A stretch of DNA of 64,000 bases from NCBI GenBank assembly GCA_947463095.1, contig CANHRE010000004.1:11077-75076 (forward strand). The letters are read 5' to 3'. Each line of letters starts with the position of its first letter. Within the stretch, counting starts at the first letter, position 1. The notes under the pieces were generated by a model. It ran no database searches and had not been told where the DNA came from. It was given only the letters and a program-made list of their open reading frames with translations. Below, piece after piece: positions 5,701 to 56,966 of the stretch. This stretch comes from Flavobacteriales bacterium (GTDB taxonomy: Bacteria; Bacteroidota; Bacteroidia; NS11-12g; UBA955). The translations under genes and the position numbers were made by a program.

Positions 5701-6903
5701 TTGCCGTGCATGCTACACGCCGCGCAGAGAATTTCAGAAATTAACGAAAGCGAGACACTGGCCATGACCAAGCTGGCCAGAGCGTTGAAAGAGGCCGGAA
5801 AGGATGTTATCAGCCTGAGCATCGGCGAGCCTGATTTTGATACGCCCGAACACATCGGTGCTGCCGCCATTCAGGCCATCCATGAAGGGTTTACCCATTA
5901 TACCCCGGTGCTTGGTTTCCAGGATTTCCGGGAAGCGATTTGCCGTAAACTGCTGCGCGAAAACGGATTGACTTATCAGGCATCGGAAATTATCGTGAGC
6001 ACCGGCGCAAAACACACGCTGGTGAACATCATGCTGGCGGTACTCAATCCGGGTGATGAAGTTGTCATCCCCGCCCCGTACTGGGTGAGTTATCCGGCCA
6101 TGGTGCGCTATGCCGGCGGCGTTCCTGTATTTCTGAATACCACCGTGGAACAGGACTATAAGCCAACAGCAGCGCAACTCAGGGCTGCCATAAGCCCAAA
6201 AACCAAAATGTTCCTGTTCAGCAGCCCCTGCAACCCCAGCGGTACGGTATTCCAGCCTGAAGACCTGGAAACATATGCGGCGGTGTTGCGCGAATTCCCC
6301 GATATCCTGGTGGTAAGCGACGAGATTTACGAACACATTATCTTTGAAGGAAAGCACCTGAGCATTGCCGGTCTGCCCGGATTTAAAGACCGCACGGCCG
6401 TAGTAAATGGTCTTTCCAAAGGCTATGCCATGACCGGATGGCGCATGGGGTATATGGCCGGGCCGCAATGGCTGGTAAAAGCCTGCGAAAAATTACAGGG
6501 GGTGTTTACCAGCGGGGCAAACAGCATAGCACAGAAAGCAGGGATTGCCGCGCTGGATGGAACCATGGAGCCCACACGTCATATGCGCGAGGTATTCAGA
6601 GCACGCCGCAACCTGGTGCTCTCCGAACTTTCGAAAATACAGGGTCTGAAAATCAACGTTCCGGAAGGTGCATTTTATGTGTTTCCCGATATTTCCCATT
6701 TCCTTGGAAAATCCTTCCAGGGGAATACCATGAGCGATTCCAATGAGCTGGCCATCTACTTGCTGAATGAAGCCCTGGTTGCTACTGTTGCTGGTGATGC
6801 TTTTGGCATGCCGTCATGCATCCGCCTTTCCTATGCCACCGATGAAGCCAGCTTGCTCAAGGCCTGCTCCAGGATGAAGGAAGCACTGGAGAAACTCAGC
6901 TGA
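5701..6903 (+). CDS. Class I/II pyridoxal-phosphate aminotransferase (aspartate/aromatic aminotransferase-like)
   Basis: 400 aa. The N-terminus RISEINESETLAMTKLARALKEAGKDVISLSIGEPDFDTP matches the AspAT-family N-terminus, and the PLP-lysine region is NGLSKGYAMTGWRMGY. The true start may be M4 (5710). The gene is divergent from the GT4 gene. Confidence 0.8.
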   Translation: MPCMLHAAQRISEINESETLAMTKLARALKEAGKDVISLSIGEPDFDTPEHIGAAAIQAIHEGFTHYTPVLGFQDFREAICRKLLRENGLTYQASEIIVSTGAKHTLVNIMLAVLNPGDEVVIPAPYWVSYPAMVRYAGGVPVFLNTTVEQDYKPTAAQLRAAISPKTKMFLFSSPCNPSGTVFQPEDLETYAAVLREFPDILVVSDEIYEHIIFEGKHLSIAGLPGFKDRTAVVNGLSKGYAMTGWRMGYMAGPQWLVKACEKLQGVFTSGANSIAQKAGIAALDGTMEPTRHMREVFRARRNLVLSELSKIQGLKINVPEGAFYVFPDISHFLGKSFQGNTMSDSNELAIYLLNEALVATVAGDAFGMPSCIRLSYATDEASLLKACSRMKEALEKLS

Positions 6904-6917
6904 GCTTTGAATTAACT

Positions 6918-7916
6918 TTGCGCATCCCGATGCATACAAATTTTGAATCTTTATTTCGTTCATTCCGCAGCCTGAGGGTGCTGATAGTGGGGGATGTGAT
7001 GGTGGATGCCTATTACTTTGGCAGCGTTGACCGCATTTCTCCTGAAGCACCGGTGCCCGTAGTGTTGGTGGACAAACAGGAAACCCGCCTGGGCGGGGCC
7101 GGTAATGTGGCGTTGAATGTACATGCCCTGGGTGCGCAACCCGTGCTGTGCACCGTTATTGGAACAGATAAAGAAGGCGAAGGTCTCAGGGCTCTGCTTC
7201 GGGCTCAGGGTCTGAGCGAGCGCGGAATCCTGGAAAGCGAAAAGCGCAAAACCACGACCAAAACCCGCGTGATTGGCAACAAACACCAAATTGTGCGCAT
7301 TGACCATGAACTCACCGAGAACCTGGATAAAATGGACAGCTTCCTGCTGCTCGAATCTGTGAAGCGCGAACTCGAACAGGCCGATGTGCTGATCATGGAA
7401 GACTATAACAAGGGTGTACTTCACGAGGGTAACATCAAGGCCATCATCGCCCTGGCGAAGGAAGCCGGTGTTCCCGTAGTGGTAGATCCCAAAAAGAAGA
7501 ACTTCCTGGAATATGCCGGCGTAACCCTGTTCAAGCCCAACCTGAAGGAAATCAAGGAAGGGCTGAACATCACCACCGACCTGAGGCAACCAGAACAGCT
7601 TAGCGCCGCAGTTTCTCAGTTGCAGGAGAAATTGGGCAATACCTATACCATGGTTACCTTGTCGGAACAGGGTGTGTTTATTTCCGGAAAGGGGCAGTCC
7701 CATCATATTCCGGCACACCTCAGGAACATCGCCGATGTTTCCGGCGCCGGCGATACGGTAGTCAGCGTGGCAGCCCTATGCCTGGCGCTGGAAACCGATA
7801 TCCAGTTGCTGGCAGCGCTGAGCAACCTTGCCGGAGGTATTGTTTGTGAACAAACAGGGGTAGTGCCTATTGAAGCAGAACGCCTTAAGGCGGAAGCTGA
7901 ACGACTCCTGGTCTGA
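6918..7916 (+). CDS. PfkB-family sugar kinase resembling the D-glycero-beta-D-manno-heptose-7-phosphate kinase domain (HldE/RfaE domain I), standalone
   Basis: 332 aa. LRVLIVGDVMVDAYYFGSVDRISPEAPVPVV and GGAGNVALN match the HldE kinase N-terminus, and DVSGAGDTVVSVAALCLAL is a PfkB signature. There is no fused adenylyltransferase domain. The likely start is M5 (6930). Confidence 0.65.
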   Translation: MRIPMHTNFESLFRSFRSLRVLIVGDVMVDAYYFGSVDRISPEAPVPVVLVDKQETRLGGAGNVALNVHALGAQPVLCTVIGTDKEGEGLRALLRAQGLSERGILESEKRKTTTKTRVIGNKHQIVRIDHELTENLDKMDSFLLLESVKRELEQADVLIMEDYNKGVLHEGNIKAIIALAKEAGVPVVVDPKKKNFLEYAGVTLFKPNLKEIKEGLNITTDLRQPEQLSAAVSQLQEKLGNTYTMVTLSEQGVFISGKGQSHHIPAHLRNIADVSGAGDTVVSVAALCLALETDIQLLAALSNLAGGIVCEQTGVVPIEAERLKAEAERLLV

Positions 7917-15866: not shown

Positions 15867-16330
15867 CACTGCTGTCCAAAACGTTTTTTATTGAACAGTT
15901 AGTGTGCTGATTATCAAGGATTAAGCTGTCTTTTTTTGCCATTTTGATTTTTACCCCCCCCACCGAATCAACCATATTCTATTCTTTCCTCTTACTTTTT
16001 CCTTGATGAAAAAGTAAGCAAAAAATCAAGGCTGCTTGGATAGTGGATAGTGGATAGTGGTAAGGGATAAGTGGTAAGTGGTAAGAGCCGGTCCCCGCCT
16101 GCTCCCACCGAGTTGCAAAGCAACTGCTTGCCCCCACTGGATTGCGCAGCAAGACACCGTGGGGGTGGGGGAGCAGCTTGCCCCCCTTGTCCTTCGCTGC
16201 GCTCACTTACGCCTGCCCCGTAAGCGCAGCGACAGGGGGGGCAGGCGCAAGCGCAGCGATGCGGGGTTATATTAATAGCAATAACAGGAAACAAATATTC
16301 AGAGCCCCGGCCCCGCCCGAGTTAAGCGAG
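15867..16330. repeat. Modular structured intergenic repeat, copy A: hairpin module, heptamer array and G/C-rich stem-loop modules
   Basis: 15867-16035 matches the reverse complement of 54727-54894. 15989-16175 matches 47878-48127 in direct orientation. There is a perfect 10-bp-stem hairpin (CTTACTTTTT-ccttgatg-AAAAAGTAAG) at 15991-16018 and seven tandem TGGWWAG heptamers at 16037-16085. C-run/G-run stems (CCCCCAC…GTGGGGG) follow, and more palindromic GC-rich stems extend to about 16330. The repeat lies in a convergent 3'-3' intergenic region. Confidence 0.85.
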
Positions 16331-16474
16331 CGGCGGGGGCATATTAAGTTCTTGAAGAGTTGTCAATATTTTGGAATGGTTCTGCAATTCAAAGGCAGGT
16401 CTCCTTACCCAATATTGGCTAAAATTTATTTTGGACAGATGTGTGTTGGATTTTATGAGTGTTCAGCGGTTCTC

Positions 16475-47691: not shown

Positions 47692-47877
47692 CAGTTTAGA
47701 TGGGTATTGAACTTAAGGTGAGACAGCGGCATGAACGTTGCGTCGCAAACTTACGGCAAAGGCTAAACTGAAGCAAATGAGGGATTATGGGGAGTGCACC
47801 GGTCCCTGAGCTCATTTTGAATATATGCTCATGACAGGGGTCTGTGCCAACCTGATGAATCCTTAAGCAAGAATTTT

Positions 47878-48127
47878 CTCTTACTTTTTCCTTGATGAAA
47901 AAGGATGCAAAAAATCAAGGCTGCTTGGATAGTGGTAAGGGATAAGTGGTAAGTGGTAAGTGCGGAGGTTTGTAATCCTGCTGTCATCCTGAGCATGCCT
48001 ACCCCTACCGGGCTGCGCAGCAGATTGGTAGGGGAGCTAGTTTACCCTGCCTGCCCCCACCGAGTTGCAAAGCAACTGCTTGCCCCCACTGGATTGCGCA
48101 GCAAGACACCATGGGGGTGGGGGAGCA
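47878..48127. repeat. Modular structured intergenic repeat, copy B (direct relative to copy A; carries an extra ~90-bp module)
   Basis: Matches copy A from the hairpin module through the heptamer array (five TGGWWAG units here) and the CCCCCAC…GTGGGGGTGGGGG module. It holds an additional internal duplication of the C-run-TGCGCAGCA-G-run submodule. The hairpin stem is partly degraded (AAAAAGGATG versus AAAAAGTAAG). Confidence 0.85.
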
Positions 48128-48726: not shown

Positions 48727-50577
48727 ATGAGTAAAAATTTGAACCATAAAATAGATGCTGACGACAGAAGCATCAGCGAAATTCTGAAAGACCAGAAATT
48801 TACTATTGATTATTTTCAACGTGAATACCGCTGGCAGGAAAAGCATATCAAACTTTTAATTGAAGACCTGACCACTACGTTTCTTAAATCATATAGGGAA
48901 GGAGATAAGAGATCGGAAGTAGCCAATTATCAAAGCTATTATTTAGGCCCTGTGGTGTTTAGTGTGAACACAGAAAGCGGTAAGAAATCAATTATCGACG
49001 GACAGCAGCGCATTACTTCCATCACACTCCTGCTCATTTACCTGAATCATCTTCAAAAAGATCTTCCGCAGAAAGTAAACATCAGCGAACTCATTTTTTC
49101 TGAAAAATATGGCGAAAAATCCTTCAACATGAGTGATGAAGCCAGAGAAGAGTGCTTGAAAGCACTTTTTGAAGCAGGGGCATACGAACCAACGGAAAAA
49201 GATGATGAAACAGTGCGTAACATGGTTGAACGTTATGAGGATATTGATGCTGTTTTCCCTGAAGAAATTAACGAACATGCACTTCCATTTTTCATTGATT
49301 GGTTTGTTGAAAATGTAGTTATTGTTGAAATCATCGCTTATTCGGATGAGAATGCCTATACCATTTTTGAAACAATGAACGACAGGGGATTAAACCTGAC
49401 GCCAACAGAAATGCTGAAAGGGTATATTCTTTCCAAAATCACAGACAAAAAGCAGAGAACAGAAATCAATGACCTTTGGAAAGAAGAAATTCAAAATCTT
49501 CATGAATATGGTGAAACTACAGACCAAAGCTTTTTCCAAGCATGGTTCAGAGGTAAATATGCGGTGAGTATCAGACCTGGTAAAGCAGGTTCGGAAAATC
49601 AGGACTTTGAATTGATTGGTTCCCGTTTTCATAATTGGTTTAAAGACAATCATAAGTCTCTTTTTAAACTGACCACATCAGACGAGTTCTATACTTTTTT
49701 CAAAAATCAGTTCCCATTTTTTGTAAAGTGGTATATCGAAAGCTGGAAAAGTCAAACCACATATAACGCTGCAAATCCGCATTTGAATTACATTCGTCAT
49801 TGGGGTGTTGCCGAATCGCTTCAAGAACCTCTATTGCTCTCATCAATAAACTTTGGTGATGATGAAACCATCATCAGGAAAAAGTTAGACTTTGTTGCAC
49901 GATATATTGAAACCTTTACGGTTCGACGCAGCGTGAACTACCGTAAATTTGGTCAGACGGCAATTAAATACACCATGTTTAATGTCATCAAACTTATTAG
50001 AGACAATGACCTGAAAACATTAGGCTCAAACTTGGTAAATGAAGTGTCACAAATTGCAGAAACATGGGATGGGGTTTGGAGTTTTGGTCTTCACGGCATG
50101 AACAGAAAGTTTGTAAAACATCTTCTTTCAAGAATTTCAAGTTACGTGGACAATTTAGTCGGTAAGGACACAACCTATGTATCCTATCACCATCCATACG
50201 GCAAGCAGTTTGAGATTGAGCACATTTGGGCAAACAAGTTTGAAGAACATAAAGATGAGTTTGACCAGAAAAATGATTTTCAGGAATGGAGAAATTCAGT
50301 TGGTGCACTCGTGTTATTACCACAAGGCACCAATCAATCATTCAATGGCGATAAGTATGAAGACAAACTGGAAAATTATCTAAAGGAAAATACTTACGCA
50401 CAGACCTTGCATCCAAAGTATTACACGAAGAATCCTAATTTTTTGAAATCGGAAACAGTTCAACAACTCGGATTTAAAGAGCATTCGCAATTCAAGAAGA
50501 ATGATATAGGCGAAAGGCAAATATTAGTTCAACGAATCTGTGAGAAAATATGGTCTGAAGAATACTTCAATGTATAA
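48727..50577 (+). CDS. GmrSD-type DUF262/DUF1524 nuclease (type IV restriction / BrxU-like anti-phage protein)
   Basis: 616 aa. The N-terminal DUF262 (ParB-like NTPase) has DGQQRITSITLLLIYL. The C-terminal DUF1524 His-Me finger has …FEIEHIWANKF…NSVGALVLLPQGTNQSFNGDKYEDKL. GC content is about 36-38% against about 56% genome-wide. Confidence 0.8.
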   Translation: MSKNLNHKIDADDRSISEILKDQKFTIDYFQREYRWQEKHIKLLIEDLTTTFLKSYREGDKRSEVANYQSYYLGPVVFSVNTESGKKSIIDGQQRITSITLLLIYLNHLQKDLPQKVNISELIFSEKYGEKSFNMSDEAREECLKALFEAGAYEPTEKDDETVRNMVERYEDIDAVFPEEINEHALPFFIDWFVENVVIVEIIAYSDENAYTIFETMNDRGLNLTPTEMLKGYILSKITDKKQRTEINDLWKEEIQNLHEYGETTDQSFFQAWFRGKYAVSIRPGKAGSENQDFELIGSRFHNWFKDNHKSLFKLTTSDEFYTFFKNQFPFFVKWYIESWKSQTTYNAANPHLNYIRHWGVAESLQEPLLLSSINFGDDETIIRKKLDFVARYIETFTVRRSVNYRKFGQTAIKYTMFNVIKLIRDNDLKTLGSNLVNEVSQIAETWDGVWSFGLHGMNRKFVKHLLSRISSYVDNLVGKDTTYVSYHHPYGKQFEIEHIWANKFEEHKDEFDQKNDFQEWRNSVGALVLLPQGTNQSFNGDKYEDKLENYLKENTYAQTLHPKYYTKNPNFLKSETVQQLGFKEHSQFKKNDIGERQILVQRICEKIWSEEYFNV

Positions 50578-50694
50578 CAAAGAATTTTTGTAAAGACAGC
50601 CAACGCACAGGTGTAAGCATATTTGCAAGTGTAAGTCCCACCGAAAATCGGACTGGTCATAAGTTGGCAAAATAGCTAACTTAGAACCACGAAC

Positions 50695-50961
50695 ATGAAG
50701 AAGACCAAATTCACAGAAAGCCAGATCGTGAAAGCGATTAAGGAGGCTGAAAACGGCCGTTCAGTGTCGGACATCAGCCGGGAACTGGGCATCAACCCGC
50801 AGACTTTGTACAATTGGAAAAATAAGTACTCCGGTATGGACGGTGAACACCTGCGGCGACTTAAGGAACTGGAAGAGGAGAATCGTAAGCTGAAACACAT
50901 GTATGCCGAATTGGCCCTTGACAACAAGATGCTCAAGGATGTGCTGTCAAAAAAGTGGTAA
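50695..50961 (+). CDS. IS3-family transposase OrfA (HTH)
   Basis: 88 aa: MKKTKFTESQIVKAIKEAENGRSVSDISRELGINPQTLYNWKNKY…, then a leucine-zipper-like C-terminus. This is the typical IS3 OrfA. Confidence 0.85.
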   Translation: MKKTKFTESQIVKAIKEAENGRSVSDISRELGINPQTLYNWKNKYSGMDGEHLRRLKELEEENRKLKHMYAELALDNKMLKDVLSKKW

Positions 50962-51779
50962 GGCCTGCTGCCCGCAGAGAAATAGTAGCTTACCTGCAAG
51001 TATCCCATCAGGTAAGTGTCAGCAGAGCCTGTAAAGCAACCGGGATAAGGAAATCGGTCTATTATTACCGTTCCAGGAAGGACGACAGTGCTGTCATTGA
51101 CGCATTGAGCAACCTTGCCGAACTGAAACCATCCAGAGGCTTCCCTTATGACTTCAATCGCCTGCGCAATGAGGGCCATACCTGGAACCATAAGCGTGTG
51201 AAACGGGTCTATAACCTGATGAATCTGAACCTGAGAAGAAAGCATAGGCGCCGCTTACCCCAACGCGTAGGGGGCGCGTTGGAGCAAGCGCCGAGACCAA
51301 ACCAAACATGGAGTCTGGATTTCATGCATGATACATTAATGAACGGTCGCAAAGTGCGCATCCTGAATATCATAGACGACTACAACCGACAAGCTCTGGC
51401 TATGGACGTTGATTACTCCCATTCGGGAATGAGCGTTTGCAGGGCTCTTGAAAGACTCTTCGCCGAACAAGGCCTTCCTGCTGAGTTACGGTCTGACAAT
51501 GGCCCGGAATTCTTTTCTGGAACCTATACCGACTTCTGTGAGAAACATCAAATCAAGATCCGGTACATCAAGCCAGGAAAGCCTATGCAAAACGGCTTTG
51601 TAGAACGGTTTAACCGCAGTTACAGGGAAGATATCCTGGACGCATACCTGTTTACGAATATTGAAGAATTACGTGATCTCACCTGGCAGTTTCAACAAGA
51701 CTACAATCAAAACCACCCACATCAAGCGCTGAATAACTTAAGCCCCATTGCCTTTCTCAAACTAAACAACCATCTTTGA
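50955..51779 (+). CDS. IS3-family transposase OrfB (DDE integrase-like catalytic domain), expressed by -1 frameshift from OrfA
   Basis: rve-type domain: …WSLDFMHDTL…LRSDNGPEF…YIKPGKPMQNGFVERFNRSYREDIL (DD(35)E). It overlaps OrfA at the AAAAAAG site (50949-50955). Confidence 0.85.
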   Translation: MVRPAARREIVAYLQVSHQVSVSRACKATGIRKSVYYYRSRKDDSAVIDALSNLAELKPSRGFPYDFNRLRNEGHTWNHKRVKRVYNLMNLNLRRKHRRRLPQRVGGALEQAPRPNQTWSLDFMHDTLMNGRKVRILNIIDDYNRQALAMDVDYSHSGMSVCRALERLFAEQGLPAELRSDNGPEFFSGTYTDFCEKHQIKIRYIKPGKPMQNGFVERFNRSYREDILDAYLFTNIEELRDLTWQFQQDYNQNHPHQALNNLSPIAFLKLNNHL

Positions 51780-51816
51780 CTTCCAACTTATTACCGGTTC
51801 GAAAAACGGGGTACCT

Positions 51817-52285: not shown

Positions 52286-54469
52286 TTGACAACACCTAAA
52301 ACTGATTTAAGCGCTCTTAACGACAAACAAAGCGAAGCCGTTGTTAGTGACGAAAAACGCATTTTGGTTTTAGCTGGTGCAGGTTCTGGCAAAACAAAAA
52401 CCCTATTACAAAAAATCATTTACTTGATAGAAGAAAAAGGCGTAAGTCCTTCAAGTATTCTTGCTATTACATTTACCAAGAACGCAACTAACGAAATGAT
52501 TGACCGCTTAATTGTTTCGGCAGATACAACAGGGCAATATGAAACTTTGATGTCTGATAAGCATCTAAGCAAATTAGAGAAAGACAAAGAAAGATACAGC
52601 CAACAAAAAAAATATAAATGGATTGACGGTTTAACCGTCAGGACATTTCACAGCTTTTGTTACAGCATCTTACGGAATTATGGTGTAAACGAGTTTGATA
52701 ACAAGTTTAGAATTATAGGAGACGAAAAAAAGGACGAGGAAGACGAACTTGCAAAGCATGTTGCCCCCGAAACAGTTTTTGAAGTAGTCCACAAACTTTT
52801 AATTGAGCAATGCGAAGACACTTATTTTATGCTACAATTAAAACGCTATATTTTGGATTACGTTATAGACAAAATTCACCTCAAAAAAACAGATGGAAAA
52901 TATTTGCCGAAAGACGGCAAATATTTCACAACTCTTGATGGAACAAAAGTCCGTTCCAAATCGGAGCAGTTTATTGCTGATTGGTTTTACCGCCACAGCA
53001 TAAAGTATGAATATGAACCTTTACTAAATGTTAAGGACTTCCCATTTCATCCCGACTTTTTCATTCCAGAAGCGAACCTTTATATTGAACACTTAAGCGA
53101 TAAAAGCTATTCTACAAAGGACAAAGAAGAACAATTTCAAAAGGGAAATTTACTTTTAGTAAAGACATTTGAAAGCATGACAAAAGACTCTGCTTTGTTC
53201 AACCACACTCTGGACAGCGTTGTAAAGAACCGTTTGCCTGCAAATTATCACAAGACAGTTTCATTGACTTACAAAGAAGAATTTAATGGATATCATGAAA
53301 GTATAAAGGATTTCGTTACTCAAATCATACGAATTACAGACATGATAAAAGTTGAGAACACAGACCTGAAAAAAGTCCTAAATGATGCAAGACAAGACCA
53401 ACACGAAAGAGTGAGACATTTTTATGAATTAGCAATTCCAATAGTTGAAAAATATATTCATTACTGCATAGACAAATCTTATGTTGATTTTAATGATTTG
53501 ATTTCACGGAGCACTTCCCTATTTCAGAACCATGACGACATAGCCAACAAATACAAAAGCAAATATCAATACATTTTAGTAGATGAATTTCAAGACGTAA
53601 ATAACTTGCAAGTTGAGTTAATAAAACTTTTACTAACCGACCAAACTCAAATGTTTTGTGTTGGTGACGATTGGCAAAGTATTTACGGTTTCAGAGGTTC
53701 TAACGTGAGTTATATCGTTGACTTTGAAAATCATTTTCCAAATGCAAAAGTTGTCAAACTCAATTTGAATTATCGTAGCACTCAAAACATTGTTGGAGCA
53801 AGTAACGAAGTAATCAAACACAACAAGTTTAAAGTTGAAAAAGAAATTCACTCTTCAAAAAAATCTGAACATAAAATTGTTGTCTATTCAGGCAGCAGCG
53901 AAGATGAAAACATACAATTCTGTTTTGACAGAGTGAAAGAACTTTTAGATGAAGGACTGACAAACGATGATATTTTATTTCTCTACCGTAGAAGCAGAAT
54001 GTTTACTCCTTACTTCTTTCGTTTCAAAAACGAGGGAATAAAGGTTCATGGAAAAACAATTCATGCAGCTAAAGGACTTGAAGCAAAAGTTGTTTTCATA
54101 CTTGGCTTGTCAGAGGGAAACGGGGGTTTCCCAGACATTTGGTTGGAGGACAGAATTTTTCAAGTAATTAAAAAAGCAAATCACGATTTGCTAATAGAAG
54201 AAGAAAGGCGACTATTTTATGTTGCAATCACCAGAGCCAAAGACAAACTATTTTTAGTAACAGAGAAAGGAAACGAATCAAGTTTTTTAAAAGAGATACC
54301 AGCCATTTTCACAGTTCGGACAACTATACCAATTAAGTCAGTAGTAGAAAAAGTAATTACGTGCAAAAAGTGTTTTAGCCAACTTGAAAAACTTTGGATT
54401 GCTTGCCCATACTGCATGGAGAAAGTAACAGACGACACCAACGGACAAGAAAATGACATCAATATTTAA
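52286..54469 (+). CDS. UvrD/PcrA-like SF1 helicase with a Vsr/DUF559-like (restriction-endonuclease-fold) domain inserted between motifs Ia and II and a C-terminal Cys4 zinc ribbon; probable anti-phage helicase-nuclease
   Basis: 727 aa. Helicase motifs: I AGAGSGKT, Ia ILAITFTKNA, II YILVDEFQDVN, III VGDDWQSIYGFRGS, IV NYRST, VI YVAITRAKDKLFLV. The insert is …RSKSEQFIADWFYRHSIKYEYEPLLNVKDFPFHPDFFIPEANLYIEHLSDK…. The C-terminus reads CKKCFSQLEKLWIACPYC. GC content is about 35%. Confidence 0.7.
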   Translation: MTTPKTDLSALNDKQSEAVVSDEKRILVLAGAGSGKTKTLLQKIIYLIEEKGVSPSSILAITFTKNATNEMIDRLIVSADTTGQYETLMSDKHLSKLEKDKERYSQQKKYKWIDGLTVRTFHSFCYSILRNYGVNEFDNKFRIIGDEKKDEEDELAKHVAPETVFEVVHKLLIEQCEDTYFMLQLKRYILDYVIDKIHLKKTDGKYLPKDGKYFTTLDGTKVRSKSEQFIADWFYRHSIKYEYEPLLNVKDFPFHPDFFIPEANLYIEHLSDKSYSTKDKEEQFQKGNLLLVKTFESMTKDSALFNHTLDSVVKNRLPANYHKTVSLTYKEEFNGYHESIKDFVTQIIRITDMIKVENTDLKKVLNDARQDQHERVRHFYELAIPIVEKYIHYCIDKSYVDFNDLISRSTSLFQNHDDIANKYKSKYQYILVDEFQDVNNLQVELIKLLLTDQTQMFCVGDDWQSIYGFRGSNVSYIVDFENHFPNAKVVKLNLNYRSTQNIVGASNEVIKHNKFKVEKEIHSSKKSEHKIVVYSGSSEDENIQFCFDRVKELLDEGLTNDDILFLYRRSRMFTPYFFRFKNEGIKVHGKTIHAAKGLEAKVVFILGLSEGNGGFPDIWLEDRIFQVIKKANHDLLIEEERRLFYVAITRAKDKLFLVTEKGNESSFLKEIPAIFTVRTTIPIKSVVEKVITCKKCFSQLEKLWIACPYCMEKVTDDTNGQENDINI

Positions 54470-54726
54470 AGCAGCAGACCTTCGGACGGACAATAGCCCA
54501 GCACATAACATCTAGCGGTGTAGAAGCAACCCCGCCCCATAAAAAACCCTTCGACAGGATGATAGCAGAGGTCTTATCCATTTTCCATTCCCCCCAAAGG
54601 ATCGGCCTCAAATGATGGGAGGCGTTAAACGCCGCAAAAAGCCGCTAAATGCCAAGGAAGCTCCGAGCACGCGAGGAGATCGCCGCTGGCATTCGGCTGA
54701 TGGCAAGTGTGCGCCTTTCATCATTT

Positions 54727-54894
54727 GCAGCCTTGATTATTCTCTTACTTTTTCATCAAGGAAAAAGTAAGAGAAAAGAATAGAATATGTTTGATTCGGT
54801 GTGGGGGTAAAAATCGAAATCGTCAAAAACAGACTGCTAACCCCCAAATAATCTGCACACTAACTGTTCAATAAAAACGTTTTGGACAGCAGTG
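54727..54894. repeat. Modular structured intergenic repeat, copy C (inverted relative to copies A and B; hairpin module plus left-arm module only)
   Basis: The reverse complement of 54727-54894 aligns with 15867-16035. This covers CACTGCTGTCCAAAACGTTTTT(T)ATTGAACAGTTAGTGTGC…TTTTTACCCCC…ACCGAATCAA…TATTCTATTCTT…CTCTTACTTTTTCCTTGATGAAAAAGTAAG…AATCAAGGCTGC. The hairpin is perfect. Confidence 0.85.
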
Positions 54895-55127
54895 GTTCAT
54901 AATAATAAAGATATTCACTACAAACGAAGAAAATGAACACTATAACGTACTATAACAGCACTTGCCCAAAAGTGGCGGTTCAGTGCTCCGCAGACACATT
55001 TGTGTTTAATCAATTTTGGTTCTCCGCATCAATCCCTACATATCGGAATGGTGAAAATCGCCGCCTTCGCCAAGCCCGAAACCGTTAGTGGTCAGTTTAG
55101 GACAACACACTAAAAAGACAAGAAATT

Positions 55128-55700
55128 ATGACAAACGACTATTTAGACAGTGTAAAAAAACAATTTGAGTACTACAAAATGCTTGGCGACAAAACGTTTT
55201 CGCAATTACAGGATGACAAATTGTTTTGGCAATACAATGACGACAGCAACAGTATTGCGACAATTGTAAAACACATTTGGGGAAATATGCTTTCACGTTG
55301 GACAGACTTTTTAACTTCAGACGGAGAAAAAGAATTTCGTAACAGGGATGCAGAATTTGAAAACGACATGAAAAATAGAGAAGAACTTGTAGACAAGTGG
55401 AACGAAGGTTGGACTTGTCTTTTCAATGCAATCAACTCTTTGACAATGGACGACCTTGACACAATTATTTATATACGCAATCAGGGACACACTGTATACG
55501 AAGCAATAAATCGACAACTCGCACATTATCCTTATCACATTGGACAAATTGTATTTCTGGGTAAGATGCTTGCAGAAAATGGCTGGACTTCGCTATCAAT
55601 TCCAAAAGGAAATTCACAATCGTATAACAAAGACAAGTTTACAAAACCAAAACAAAGAGGACACTTTACAGACGAGTTTCTAAACGACAAGAAAGAATGA
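55128..55700 (+). CDS. DinB/YfiT-like (DUF1572) four-helix-bundle family protein
   Basis: 190 aa. …IATIVKHIWGNMLSRWTDFL… and …QLAHYPYHIGQIVFLGKML… match the DinB_2/DUF1572 pattern of metal-binding His residues on helices. GC content is low, like the rest of the island. Confidence 0.55.
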   Translation: MTNDYLDSVKKQFEYYKMLGDKTFSQLQDDKLFWQYNDDSNSIATIVKHIWGNMLSRWTDFLTSDGEKEFRNRDAEFENDMKNREELVDKWNEGWTCLFNAINSLTMDDLDTIIYIRNQGHTVYEAINRQLAHYPYHIGQIVFLGKMLAENGWTSLSIPKGNSQSYNKDKFTKPKQRGHFTDEFLNDKKE

Positions 55701-55817
55701 AAACCGAACCGCTAATATTTAGCGGAGTAGAAGCAACCACGCTCAAAAAAAATGAGCTAGAGCGTGTTACACGAATTGGGTCAATTTGAGCAAAAACCAC
55801 TAAACTTGACATAAACG

Positions 55818-56702: not shown

Positions 56703-56856
56703 CCATCCAACTACAAAACGGGAGATACTCCGTTTTTCGAACCGGCCATGAGTGGAAACCCTATGGAGGAGCTTCAAGCACAGCAATGCCGTTTTGCGTA
56801 CTTATATCTATGTCCAGAATGCTTGCGTTCGTATTTGTCTGGCTTCATTAGTGGGC

Positions 56857-56889
56857 AAAAAAAAACCATCACATGGTGATGGTTTTTTT
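56857..56889. terminator. Rho-independent terminator shared by tRNA-Val (minus) and the DUF1566 gene (plus)
   Basis: AAAAAAAAA-CCATCACATGGTGATGG-TTTTTTT lies immediately 3' of the tRNA. Confidence 0.7.
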
Positions 56890-56891
56890 GG

Positions 56892-56966
56892 TGGGAGCTG
56901 AGGGGTTCGAACCCCCGACCCTCTGCTTGTAAGGCAGATGCTCTGAACCAGCTGAGCTAAGCTCCC
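56892..56966 (-). tRNA. tRNA-Val (anticodon TAC); the CCA is genome-encoded (56889-56891)
   Basis: Reverse complement: GGGAGCU-UA-GCUC-AGCUGGUUCA-GAGC-A-UCUGC-CUUACAA-GCAGA-GGGUC-GGGGG-UUCGAAC-CCCCU-CAGCUCCC-A-CCA. It folds as a cloverleaf with a 7-bp acceptor stem, a GGUUCGAAC T-loop and anticodon UAC. Confidence 0.9.

Follow-up and report, generated by a model that had tools for sequence, protein, structure and literature searches.

ERIC elements of Enterobacteriaceae and Vibrionaceae and pneumococcal BOX elements are imperfect palindromes of 130-250 nt: transcribed, modular intergenic DNA with strong cross-genus conservation, modest copy number and rare mobility. Bacteroidota are not known to have Hfq or ProQ, and little has been mapped of their repeats and non-coding RNA. 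Arrays of non-coding RNA (ncRNA) that go with UG27 reverse transcriptases (RTs), whose hosts include Bacteroidota, are built of 135-167 nt units that combine a pseudoknot with two hairpins, a basal one and a main one bearing conserved asymmetric loops; they adjoin RT genes, which come with two accessory genes, in prophages, have the motifs AUCN7UANAG and UUYA on either side of the central stem and show little primary-sequence conservation (bioRxiv 10.64898/2026.09.22.753630). The small RNAs (sRNAs) FopS and GibS of Bacteroides are 65-70 nt long, have a sigma-ABfr promoter and a single-stranded 5' seed, and are confined to Bacteroidaceae (PMC11697453). 'Atypical' repetitive extragenic palindromes (REPs) have been reported around Bacteroidetes RAYT subclass 2.6 (PMC6006769). 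Here we analyze a 64-kb stretch of Flavobacteriales bacterium GCA_947463095.1 (contig CANHRE010000004.1; the window) with three intergenic repeats, copies A, B and C, which an earlier interpretation made from the letters alone (the sequence-only reading) had described as one family of four modules. The copies and all four modules are present, but only module 2 is phylum-wide, modules 1, 3 and 4 being lineage-specific additions. Module 2 caps a unit of 175-260 nt, the PK-rod, in which a 5' pseudoknot is followed by a long imperfect hairpin (the rod) closed by GGCU…/…AGGCC. The PK-rod is a phylum-wide, non-coding element that folds from a single strand and has been duplicated, gained and lost. 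Dispersed structured repeats between genes are a known kind of object, to which this family adds apparently new features: a pseudoknot as cap, conserved loops in the rod and an invariance that spans the phylum.

The core of the unit has the 43-nt consensus N3-4 CUUUUU C CUUGAU G AAAAAG N'3-4 C A6 UCAAG(R). Its hairpin loop, CUUGAU, is complementary to the AUCAAG beyond the C-A6 linker, allowing an H-type pseudoknot. That the loop could pair with the downstream strand had been noted for the window and is borne out elsewhere: among 108 distinct sequences, 95-99% preserve the six pairs of the pseudoknot, and eight loop/tail variants from copies not picked by the exact-match search are compensatory (CUUGAC/GUCAAG in L083, L047 and L087; CUUGAA/UUCAAG in L076, L028 and L035; CUUGG/CCAAG in two copies in L019; collected loci carry L numbers). 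The hairpin stem, S1, comprises 9-12 bp with an invariant U5/A5 tract and covaries in its outer part, where one pair is UA in 49, GC in 25, CG in 24 and AU in 6 sequences and another AU in 49, UA in 35 and CG in 12; 98% of the outer cells are paired, and none of 500 shuffles reached the covariation score. About one fifth of the copies hold a GC-rich hairpin or a 50-nt insert in the linker, while insertions occur nowhere else in the core, which is the behavior of a tolerated loop in a folded molecule.

Two helices, loop-to-downstream pairing and covariation place the core in the H-type class, and the loop lengths of the written strand would also suit a classical H-type knot sterically, L1 (0-1 nt) spanning an S2 of 6-7 bp and the A-rich L3 (6-7 nt) passing over 9-10 bp of S1. 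Its topology matches that of minimal IBV-type frameshift knots, the P1-pseudoknot part of pistol ribozymes and preQ1-I, with an S1 of 10-11 bp, the hairpin loop wholly in the second helix and an L3 that could occupy the S1 minor groove; unlike these, the PK unit has no slippery site, reading-frame context or fixed downstream gene, and the pistol P2 strand is absent. The complementary strand would probably make a poor knot. A triple-helix knot on that strand, with a U6 linker over the U5:A5 helix, was attractive at first but was set aside because a loop of a single nucleotide would be left to bridge the minor groove of 6 bp of helix. A mini open reading frame (ORF) within the hairpin, ATG AAA AAG TAA, was likewise rejected: on direct reading its peptide is unconserved, because the codons that follow are the covarying stem.

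Three peculiarities in or next to the core deserve separate mention. In a Rikenellaceae metagenome-assembled genome (MAG; L008:3653-3699) the loop is inverted, CATCAAGG in place of CCTTGATG, and the tail is still AAAAATCAAGG; loop and tail are thus identical instead of complementary, making this a natural 'flipped hairpin' unable to form the pseudoknot. L088:557-620 carries a 16-nt tandem duplication of the linker and pseudoknot strand (ACAAAAAATCAAGACC twice) in an otherwise canonical unit. A loop-less AU-rich palindrome, for example CTTCTTTTAAAAGAAG followed by CAAAG, often lies 15-40 nt upstream of the PK hairpin (L018, L025, L028, L035, L046, L083) and may be a degenerate half-unit.

Beyond the core, the strand that follows UCAAG (GGCUG…) forms the 5' arm of the rod, and alignments of several classes place the end of the 3' arm at …(A/G)AGGCC. 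Measured from the hairpin to AGGCC, units span 175-232 nt, with one subfamily at ~245 nt. Folding yields one nested hairpin per rod, at -37 to -86 kcal/mol, and the sequences differ greatly between classes. What the classes have in common is the closing helix, in which 6/10 class-1 sequences carry a U·G wobble, and, close to the 3' end, a UUAACGCC bulge. Rods of class 1 add an invariant AAACUCG and CUCAAACA on either side of a covarying apical hairpin. RNAalifold identifies 9 and 16 pairs with double changes in the rod alignments. Minimum free energy (MFE) favored the opposite strand in 32/35 rods, but composition-matched shuffles reproduce this bias, which is therefore compositional; we used wobble counts instead, and these favor the written strand (~37 G·U versus 11 A·C in the consensus rod helices). 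What is selected is the fold of one strand, the written one.

Among the matches listed from a species-representative genome collection, an exact 20-mer of the core (CTTTTTCCTTGATGAAAAAG) occurs at >113 genome loci, where ~1 is expected by chance. Of these, 109 carry Bacteroidota labels from across the classes of the phylum, including Pedobacter, Mucilaginibacter, Daejeonella, Aequorivita, Flavobacterium, Chryseobacterium, Crocinitomicaceae, Saprospiraceae, Chitinophaga, Sediminibacterium, Algoriphagus, Spirosoma, Cyclobacteriaceae, Parabacteroides, Rikenellaceae, Lentimicrobiaceae and others. The remaining labels among the matches listed are two Akkermansia-binned MAG contigs, one 'uncultured bacterium' and one Shewanella, whose match sits within an ORF without the rest of the motif. 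Canonical PK units are present on both of the short contigs binned as uncultured Akkermansia (Verrucomicrobiota; L028 and L029), L028 having three; a binning error is more likely here than true presence outside Bacteroidota. The exact core usually occurs in 1-4 copies per genome, and diverged copies are commoner, with up to five in 8 kb. An origin from phages or plasmids was rejected: none of 2.9 million viral contigs contains the 20-mer, and blastn of copy C against plasmid and phage collections gave no match.

No Rfam 15 family matches the window repeats, copies A and C or class-1 and class-2 units at the gathering threshold or at E <= 5-10; matches are limited to tRNA-Val in the window, a SAM riboswitch and a tRNA at one locus and, for the units, meaningless miRNA models (E >= 0.003). 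A search of the literature by sequence string and by concept returned no paper describing the motif, although its coverage was incomplete and the motif may have been described under another name.

Within the window, a covariance model of module 2 derived from unrelated genomes finds exactly three sites, those of A, B and C, far above chance (Table 1); the next-best matches come from the reverse strands of these sites, which are palindromic. Direct reading and a repeat finder reproduce the shared modules. A and B match at 88% over 89 nt of hairpin and heptamers (15985-16073 and 47874-47962) and at 96% over 83 nt of module 4 (16093-16175 and 48045-48127); A and C form an inverted repeat of 85% over 151 nt of module 1 and hairpin (15885-16035 and 54727-54877); and the inverted arms of B and C agree at 90% over 51 nt. 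Only spurious ORFs cross the repeat region, in keeping with the claim that nothing protein-coding explains the copies. The perfect 10-bp stem ascribed to the hairpin exists in A; in C it has 12 bp, and in B the 3' arm, AAAAAGGATG, carries two mismatches. Copy C, given as modules 1-2 at 54727-54894, does contain these modules, but its left limit was set too short, since the conserved structured domain runs on to 54604. C is intact, whereas A and B are decayed units in which a slippage-prone heptamer microsatellite replaced the rod and which were colonized by module 4. A retains AAGAGCCGGTCC, which on direct reading resembles the 3' end of class-4 units, AAGGCCGGTCC; B has no recognizable unit 3' end, only its 5' part being kept.

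Table 1. Repeat copies and neighboring features of the window.
Feature	Position	Strand	Basis or remark
Copy A, module 1 (lineage-specific 5' extension)	15867-15988	+	Starts CACTGCTGTCC, holds a second ATCAAGG; same 5' boundary with other flanks in C, L014, L058, L065
Copy A, pseudoknot core	15989-16032	+	Covariance model, 61.3 bits, E = 6e-14
Copy A core, S1	15991-16000 : 16009-16018	+	
Copy A core, loop	16001-16008	+	
Copy A core, linker C-A6	16019-16025	+	
Copy A core, pseudoknot strand ATCAAGG	16025-16031	+	
Copy A, degenerate rod	16030-16094	+	GGCTGC (closing-helix 5' strand), 7 TGGWWAG heptamers (16037-16085), AAGAGCCGGTCC (16083-16094)
Copy A, module 4 (GC-rich REP-like hairpins)	16093-16338	+	Repeat finder, folding
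Copy A module 4, Y-shaped element	16093-16175	+	
Copy A module 4, long hairpin	16176-16247	+	
Copy A module 4, small hairpin	to 16266	+	
Copy A module 4, terminal hairpin	16303-16338	+	
Copy B, pseudoknot core	47878-47921	+	53.3 bits, E = 8e-12; outer stem with two mismatches (AAAAAGGATG)
Copy B, GGCTGC then five heptamer units	47922-47962	+	Direct reading, Tandem Repeats Finder
Copy B, module 4	47990-48127	+	Hairpin CCCCTACC…GGTAGGGG around loop GGGCTGCGCAGCAGATT; 83-nt element 96% identical to A
GmrSD	48727-50577		
IS3-family element, inverted repeats	50648-50667, 51783-51802		
IS3-family element, rve ORF	50955-51779		
UvrD-like helicase	52286-54469		
Copy C, complete class-4 unit	54604-54778	-	Conserved in L003, L016, L020, L054, L057, L058, L065, L082
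Copy C, rod closing helix	GGCTGCAAATGATG (54732-54719) : CATCATTTGAGGCC (54617-54604)	-	Rod MFE -54.7 kcal/mol
Copy C, pseudoknot core	54730-54773	-	Module 2 covariance model, E = 2e-11; degenerate linker GAGAATAA
Copy C, module 1 (5' extension preceding the unit)	54779-54894	-	Repeat finder, alignment
DUF1572/DinB gene	55128-55700		
tRNA-Val	56889-56966	-	

The other modules have histories of their own. Module 1 always starts CACTGCTGTCC, has unrelated flanks and is present only in a few related MAGs. Tandem Repeats Finder confirms heptamer arrays of 7 units in A (16037-16085) and 5 in B (47927-47962). These had been taken for iteron-like protein-binding sites, a suggestion that finds no support because the arrays occupy the position that the rod has in other copies; TGGWWAG heptamers occur in no other collected locus, and A and B differ by two identical TGGATAG units, the expected product of slippage. 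The module 4 hairpins fold as described (z = -3.8 for 15985-16345). Module 4 stands apart as a lineage-specific family of REP-like, GC-rich hairpins that have a GCTTG-type foot, a CCCCGC…GCGGGG stem and a loop with conserved GCGCAGC, and similar hairpins stand beside or inside units in L054, L057 and L016. In style (foot plus GC stem) it is like the 'atypical' REPs of RAYT subclass 2.6 (PMC6006769); the likeness stays a resemblance, because no RAYT was found in the material searched. None of the subclass 2.6 REPs in the table of that paper contains the PK motif.

The neighbors of the units are unrelated housekeeping genes, and the units occur in either orientation, in intergenic regions that are convergent in 23 cases, tandem in 22 and 21 (two orientations) and divergent in only 8. 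The 148 neighboring ORFs represent 181 Pfam families, none of which is enriched, and include no transposase, recombinase or RT. Near-identical copies stand at unrelated sites of one genome (three in CANKLE01, four each in CAZHZT01 and JBEDND01, and those in this window), and same-orientation tandem clusters fill long intergenic regions (L083, L019, L084, L040, L011). One orthologous intergenic region holds a unit in L031, where it is 330 nt long, but none in L092, where it is 91 nt long. Exact ends, TC(T/C)TTTCTTTTTCC … CCAATGGTC, are common to five copies from a single subfamily, and their left flanks end TA(G/A) in 5/5, a weak signal. About 10 matches lie <=160 nt from contig ends; metagenome contigs of the same organism break inside A and B, one of them (L115) beginning within module 4 of B.

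We favor the view that the PK-rod is a duplicating, non-autonomous element of the REPIN/ERIC type whose pseudoknot is a handle for a putative conserved trans-acting factor, and assign this a probability of about 0.5. The mechanism, in which we have moderate confidence, would be that a unit coding no protein and tied to no fixed partner gene is copied within genomes non-autonomously, in the manner of REPINs and ERIC, that the near-invariant pseudoknot is recognized by a putative conserved factor acting in trans, and that an inserted unit is transcribed only passively. The pseudoknot is the candidate contact surface because its invariance exceeds structural need: the stem could covary. The sequence-only reading, which is partly supported as a whole, was in the right general territory when it named a REP/BIME-like or MITE-like element or a small RNA, as the unit is a non-coding, structured, modular repeat. 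The copies are not a tRNA or rRNA fragment, an IS3 end or a CRISPR leader, and copies elsewhere covary.

Units and REPIN/REP-BIME elements are alike in being non-coding, intergenic, present in either orientation and depleted from promoter regions, and they share long imperfect hairpins with kept arm pairing, clustering, within-genome duplication and vertical persistence. The PK core differs from REPIN/REP in being AU-rich, without a GTAG-type foot (foot and GC stem occur in module 4 alone), in its loop-to-tail pseudoknot and in its 1-4 exact copies per genome, and no RAYT was seen nearby; moreover, its near-identity extends over the phylum, while REPs, which co-evolve with their RAYT, vary from genus to genus. 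ERIC and BOX resemble the units in size, palindromy, conservation and modularity, but they have no sequence relationship to them, no pseudoknot cap and no phylum-wide range. As for MITEs (miniature transposable elements with inverted repeats), we found no terminal inverted repeats and no target-site duplication in the five subfamily copies, and no transposase in the 148 nearest ORFs; module 1 copies start CACTG and have unrelated flanks. Compared with IS200/IS605 ends or palindrome-associated transposable elements (PATEs), the lack of a target-site duplication is consistent and the TA(G/A) left flanks give a weak signal, while the units have no second terminal hairpin of the same kind, no TnpA in the loci searched and no replication-strand bias.

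Several observations weigh against a selfish element. A stretch of 43 nt that is near-identical across a phylum, the conserved internal loops and the unit that Aequorivita species retain at one orthologous site resemble a functional RNA more than selfish DNA left to drift. For a selfish repeat the copies are also few, three complete chromosomes having one exact core each. The five subfamily copies with common ends have no terminal inverted repeat and no target-site duplication. With respect to local GC skew the units have no preferred orientation (54:43, p = 0.31), unlike IS200/REP systems. No mobilizing enzyme was found for the units, and no RAYT-like ORF (HUH/Y1 motif) is present in the 1.3 Mb of collected loci plus the window, to which the search was confined. 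Finally, a modest co-orientation with the upstream gene (57:34) hints at a role as RNA.

The main rival reading makes the unit a functional RNA domain, either in neighboring mRNAs, mostly in their 3' untranslated regions, or as an sRNA, that would bind a conserved Bacteroidota RNA-binding protein or block ribonucleases and would set transcript ends or stability. This role, comparable to that of REP/ERIC in enterobacteria, does not exclude duplication of the kind we favor; we regard it as possible, though tentative. Selection for structure on one strand, compensatory changes in both knot helices, the A-rich L3 and tolerated hairpin inserts typical of RNA tertiary motifs, the conserved asymmetric internal loops of the rods and a low-copy core that is invariant across the phylum all speak for it, as do the preference for the downstream side of genes, the scarcity at divergent promoters and the start of copy A 5 nt past a same-strand stop codon. 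Yet the two tandem-gene orientations are equally frequent, copy C is antisense to both neighbor genes, and the site occupied in L031 is empty in L092. There is no promoter at a fixed distance, TAnnTTTG occurring upstream 7 times against ~6 expected, and no U-tract follows the hairpin on either strand.

The last two results also dispose of narrower candidates: an independent sRNA gene was rejected for lack of a positioned Bacteroidota promoter, and an intrinsic terminator for lack of a U-tract beyond the hairpin. A cis-regulatory leader or riboswitch was rejected because no downstream gene or orientation is consistent. FopS/GibS-like sRNAs do not fit either, since the units have no promoter and are phylum-wide, and the PK motif is absent from the supplements of PMC11697453. 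A contrast to the PK hairpin is offered by window positions 56855-56889, where a perfect A8-hairpin-T8 bidirectional terminator (AAAAAAAACCATCACATGGTGATGGTTTTTTT) abuts tRNA-Val.

The unit could alternatively be an RNA that serves a trans-acting enzyme as template or guide or is itself catalytic; examples would be a dispersed version of the ncRNA arrays that UG27 RTs copy, a substrate of an HUH nuclease, or a new self-cleaving ribozyme of pistol-like layout. In architecture, and in its tandem arrays of sequence-diverse units, the PK-rod parallels the UG27 ncRNA, but it is chromosomal and dispersed, has a near-invariant core and is absent from viral contigs, whereas UG27 is phage-borne; the UG27 motif AUCN7UANAG is missing, and no RT adjoins the units in the 148 ORFs. 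Pistol ribozymes have a hairpin with a 6-nt loop wholly paired to a strand reached by an A-rich linker, a layout that the PK core recalls, and a scattered, orientation-free, low-copy distribution like that of the units is typical of bacterial self-cleaving ribozymes. The pistol model and all other Rfam ribozymes nevertheless give no match, the pistol P2 strand between linker and pseudoknot strand is missing, and the loci searched contain no linked RT or nuclease gene. We consider such a role unlikely. A somewhat broader proposal, that the PK-rod is a new Bacteroidota-specific class of functional structured RNA, with the pseudoknot and the internal loops (AAACUCG…CUCAAACA, UUAACGCC) as an active or protein-recruiting core, acting as a ribozyme or as a trans template or guide for a conserved chromosomal enzyme, and with copies that are paralogous genes and not selfish DNA, strikes us as doubtful.

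The sequence-only reading had further proposed that the repeats bracket or sit inside a defense island and may be recombination sites for cassette exchange, which would make them attC-like, with B and C as inverted island boundaries. B and C do lie on either side of GmrSD, IS3 and helicase and face inwards, and the genomic surroundings of other units provide partial parallels: in L026 and L052 a single gene sits between inward-facing units, and L011:1-8000 (Flavobacteriales MAG JACJZW010000009.1) has four same-orientation PK units (1254, 3171, 4175, 5910) between small ORFs. Among the proteins they encode are a Fic/Doc toxin (2361-2729) and a TPR-DarT ADP-ribosyltransferase (6588-7499), along with several that are predicted to be secreted or are unknown, and L011 looks like a cassette array of toxin/defense genes punctuated by units. 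It is, however, the only array-like locus; the genes in L026 and L052 are an ordinary oxidoreductase and hydrolase, gene-free same-orientation clusters are commoner than inward-facing pairs, and most units adjoin housekeeping genes. No integrase or recombinase is encoded in the 148 neighboring ORFs, and the core is invariant, unlike attC.

Nor does the island itself follow the repeats. Over the 32 kb from A to B runs core genome of an ordinary kind and not a defense island, with gyrB, UbiA, AsmA, type IX secretion substrates and an ABC/HlyD/OEP efflux pump. A low-GC segment spans ~48.2-55.8 kb (32-40% versus ~52%) and extends beyond C through the DUF1572 gene; because low GC persists to the right of C as far as ~55.8 kb, C lies inside the foreign segment and not at its edge. 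The segment adjoins tRNA-Val and therefore looks like a tRNA-associated genomic island, although no integrase was seen among the island ORFs scanned. The DUF1572 gene has 90-95% DNA identity to many freshwater metagenome contigs, but the 80 relative loci show no synteny with the window past the gene and no units; copy C is thus unconserved there, yet none provides a clean empty site. A function as cassette-exchange sites is accordingly very improbable, and the window copies are passengers that neither define nor move the GmrSD-IS3-helicase island.

If the PK-rod is mobile, as we favor, it would be a rare non-proteobacterial counterpart of long-lived intragenomic replicators of the REPIN/RAYT type; if it is a functional RNA, it would represent a widespread new class. 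Under either reading the core is short enough for direct biochemical tests. Hardly a letter of its 43-nt pseudoknot differs among Bacteroidales, Flavobacteriales, Cytophagales, Chitinophagales, Saprospiraceae and Sphingobacteriales, and conservation on this scale implies a phylum-conserved partner, putatively an RNA-binding protein, a nuclease or a copying enzyme. In practice, the motif explains breaks in MAG assemblies and is a phylum-specific marker of contamination, as in the two 'Akkermansia'-binned contigs; because no Rfam model matches it, it should enter RNA and repeat annotation.

The right part of the window shows further repeats. The inverted repeats of the IS3 element differ from the ends of PK units. 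An inverted repeat of 36 nt (81%) has one arm at the right end of IS3 (51781-51816) and the other just past the Lcl_C-domain gene and 130 nt from tRNA-Val (56723-56758); this second arm may be a solitary IS end that marks an older insertion or the right border of the island. Two 40-nt direct repeats (83%; 54506-54545 and 55713-55752, TAAYATYTAGCGGNGTAGAAGCAACC…) lie just past the stop codons of the helicase and DUF1572 genes and bracket copy C together with the DUF1572 gene, and the DNA block common with the metagenome relatives (55084-55715) stops where the second of them starts. Directly upstream of the DUF1572 gene, a conserved element of ~115 nt (54950-55095, +) shows long-range pairing of GGCAAAAGTGGCGG … CCGCCTTCGCC. 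It recurs at L120:945-1075, L134:585-715 and L143:6995-7135, preceding other ORFs in L120 and L134, one without a Pfam match and one for an esterase that is secreted and has a sorting tail for type IX secretion. The element, which has no Rfam match and does not covary among the four sequences, may be a leader or a small RNA.

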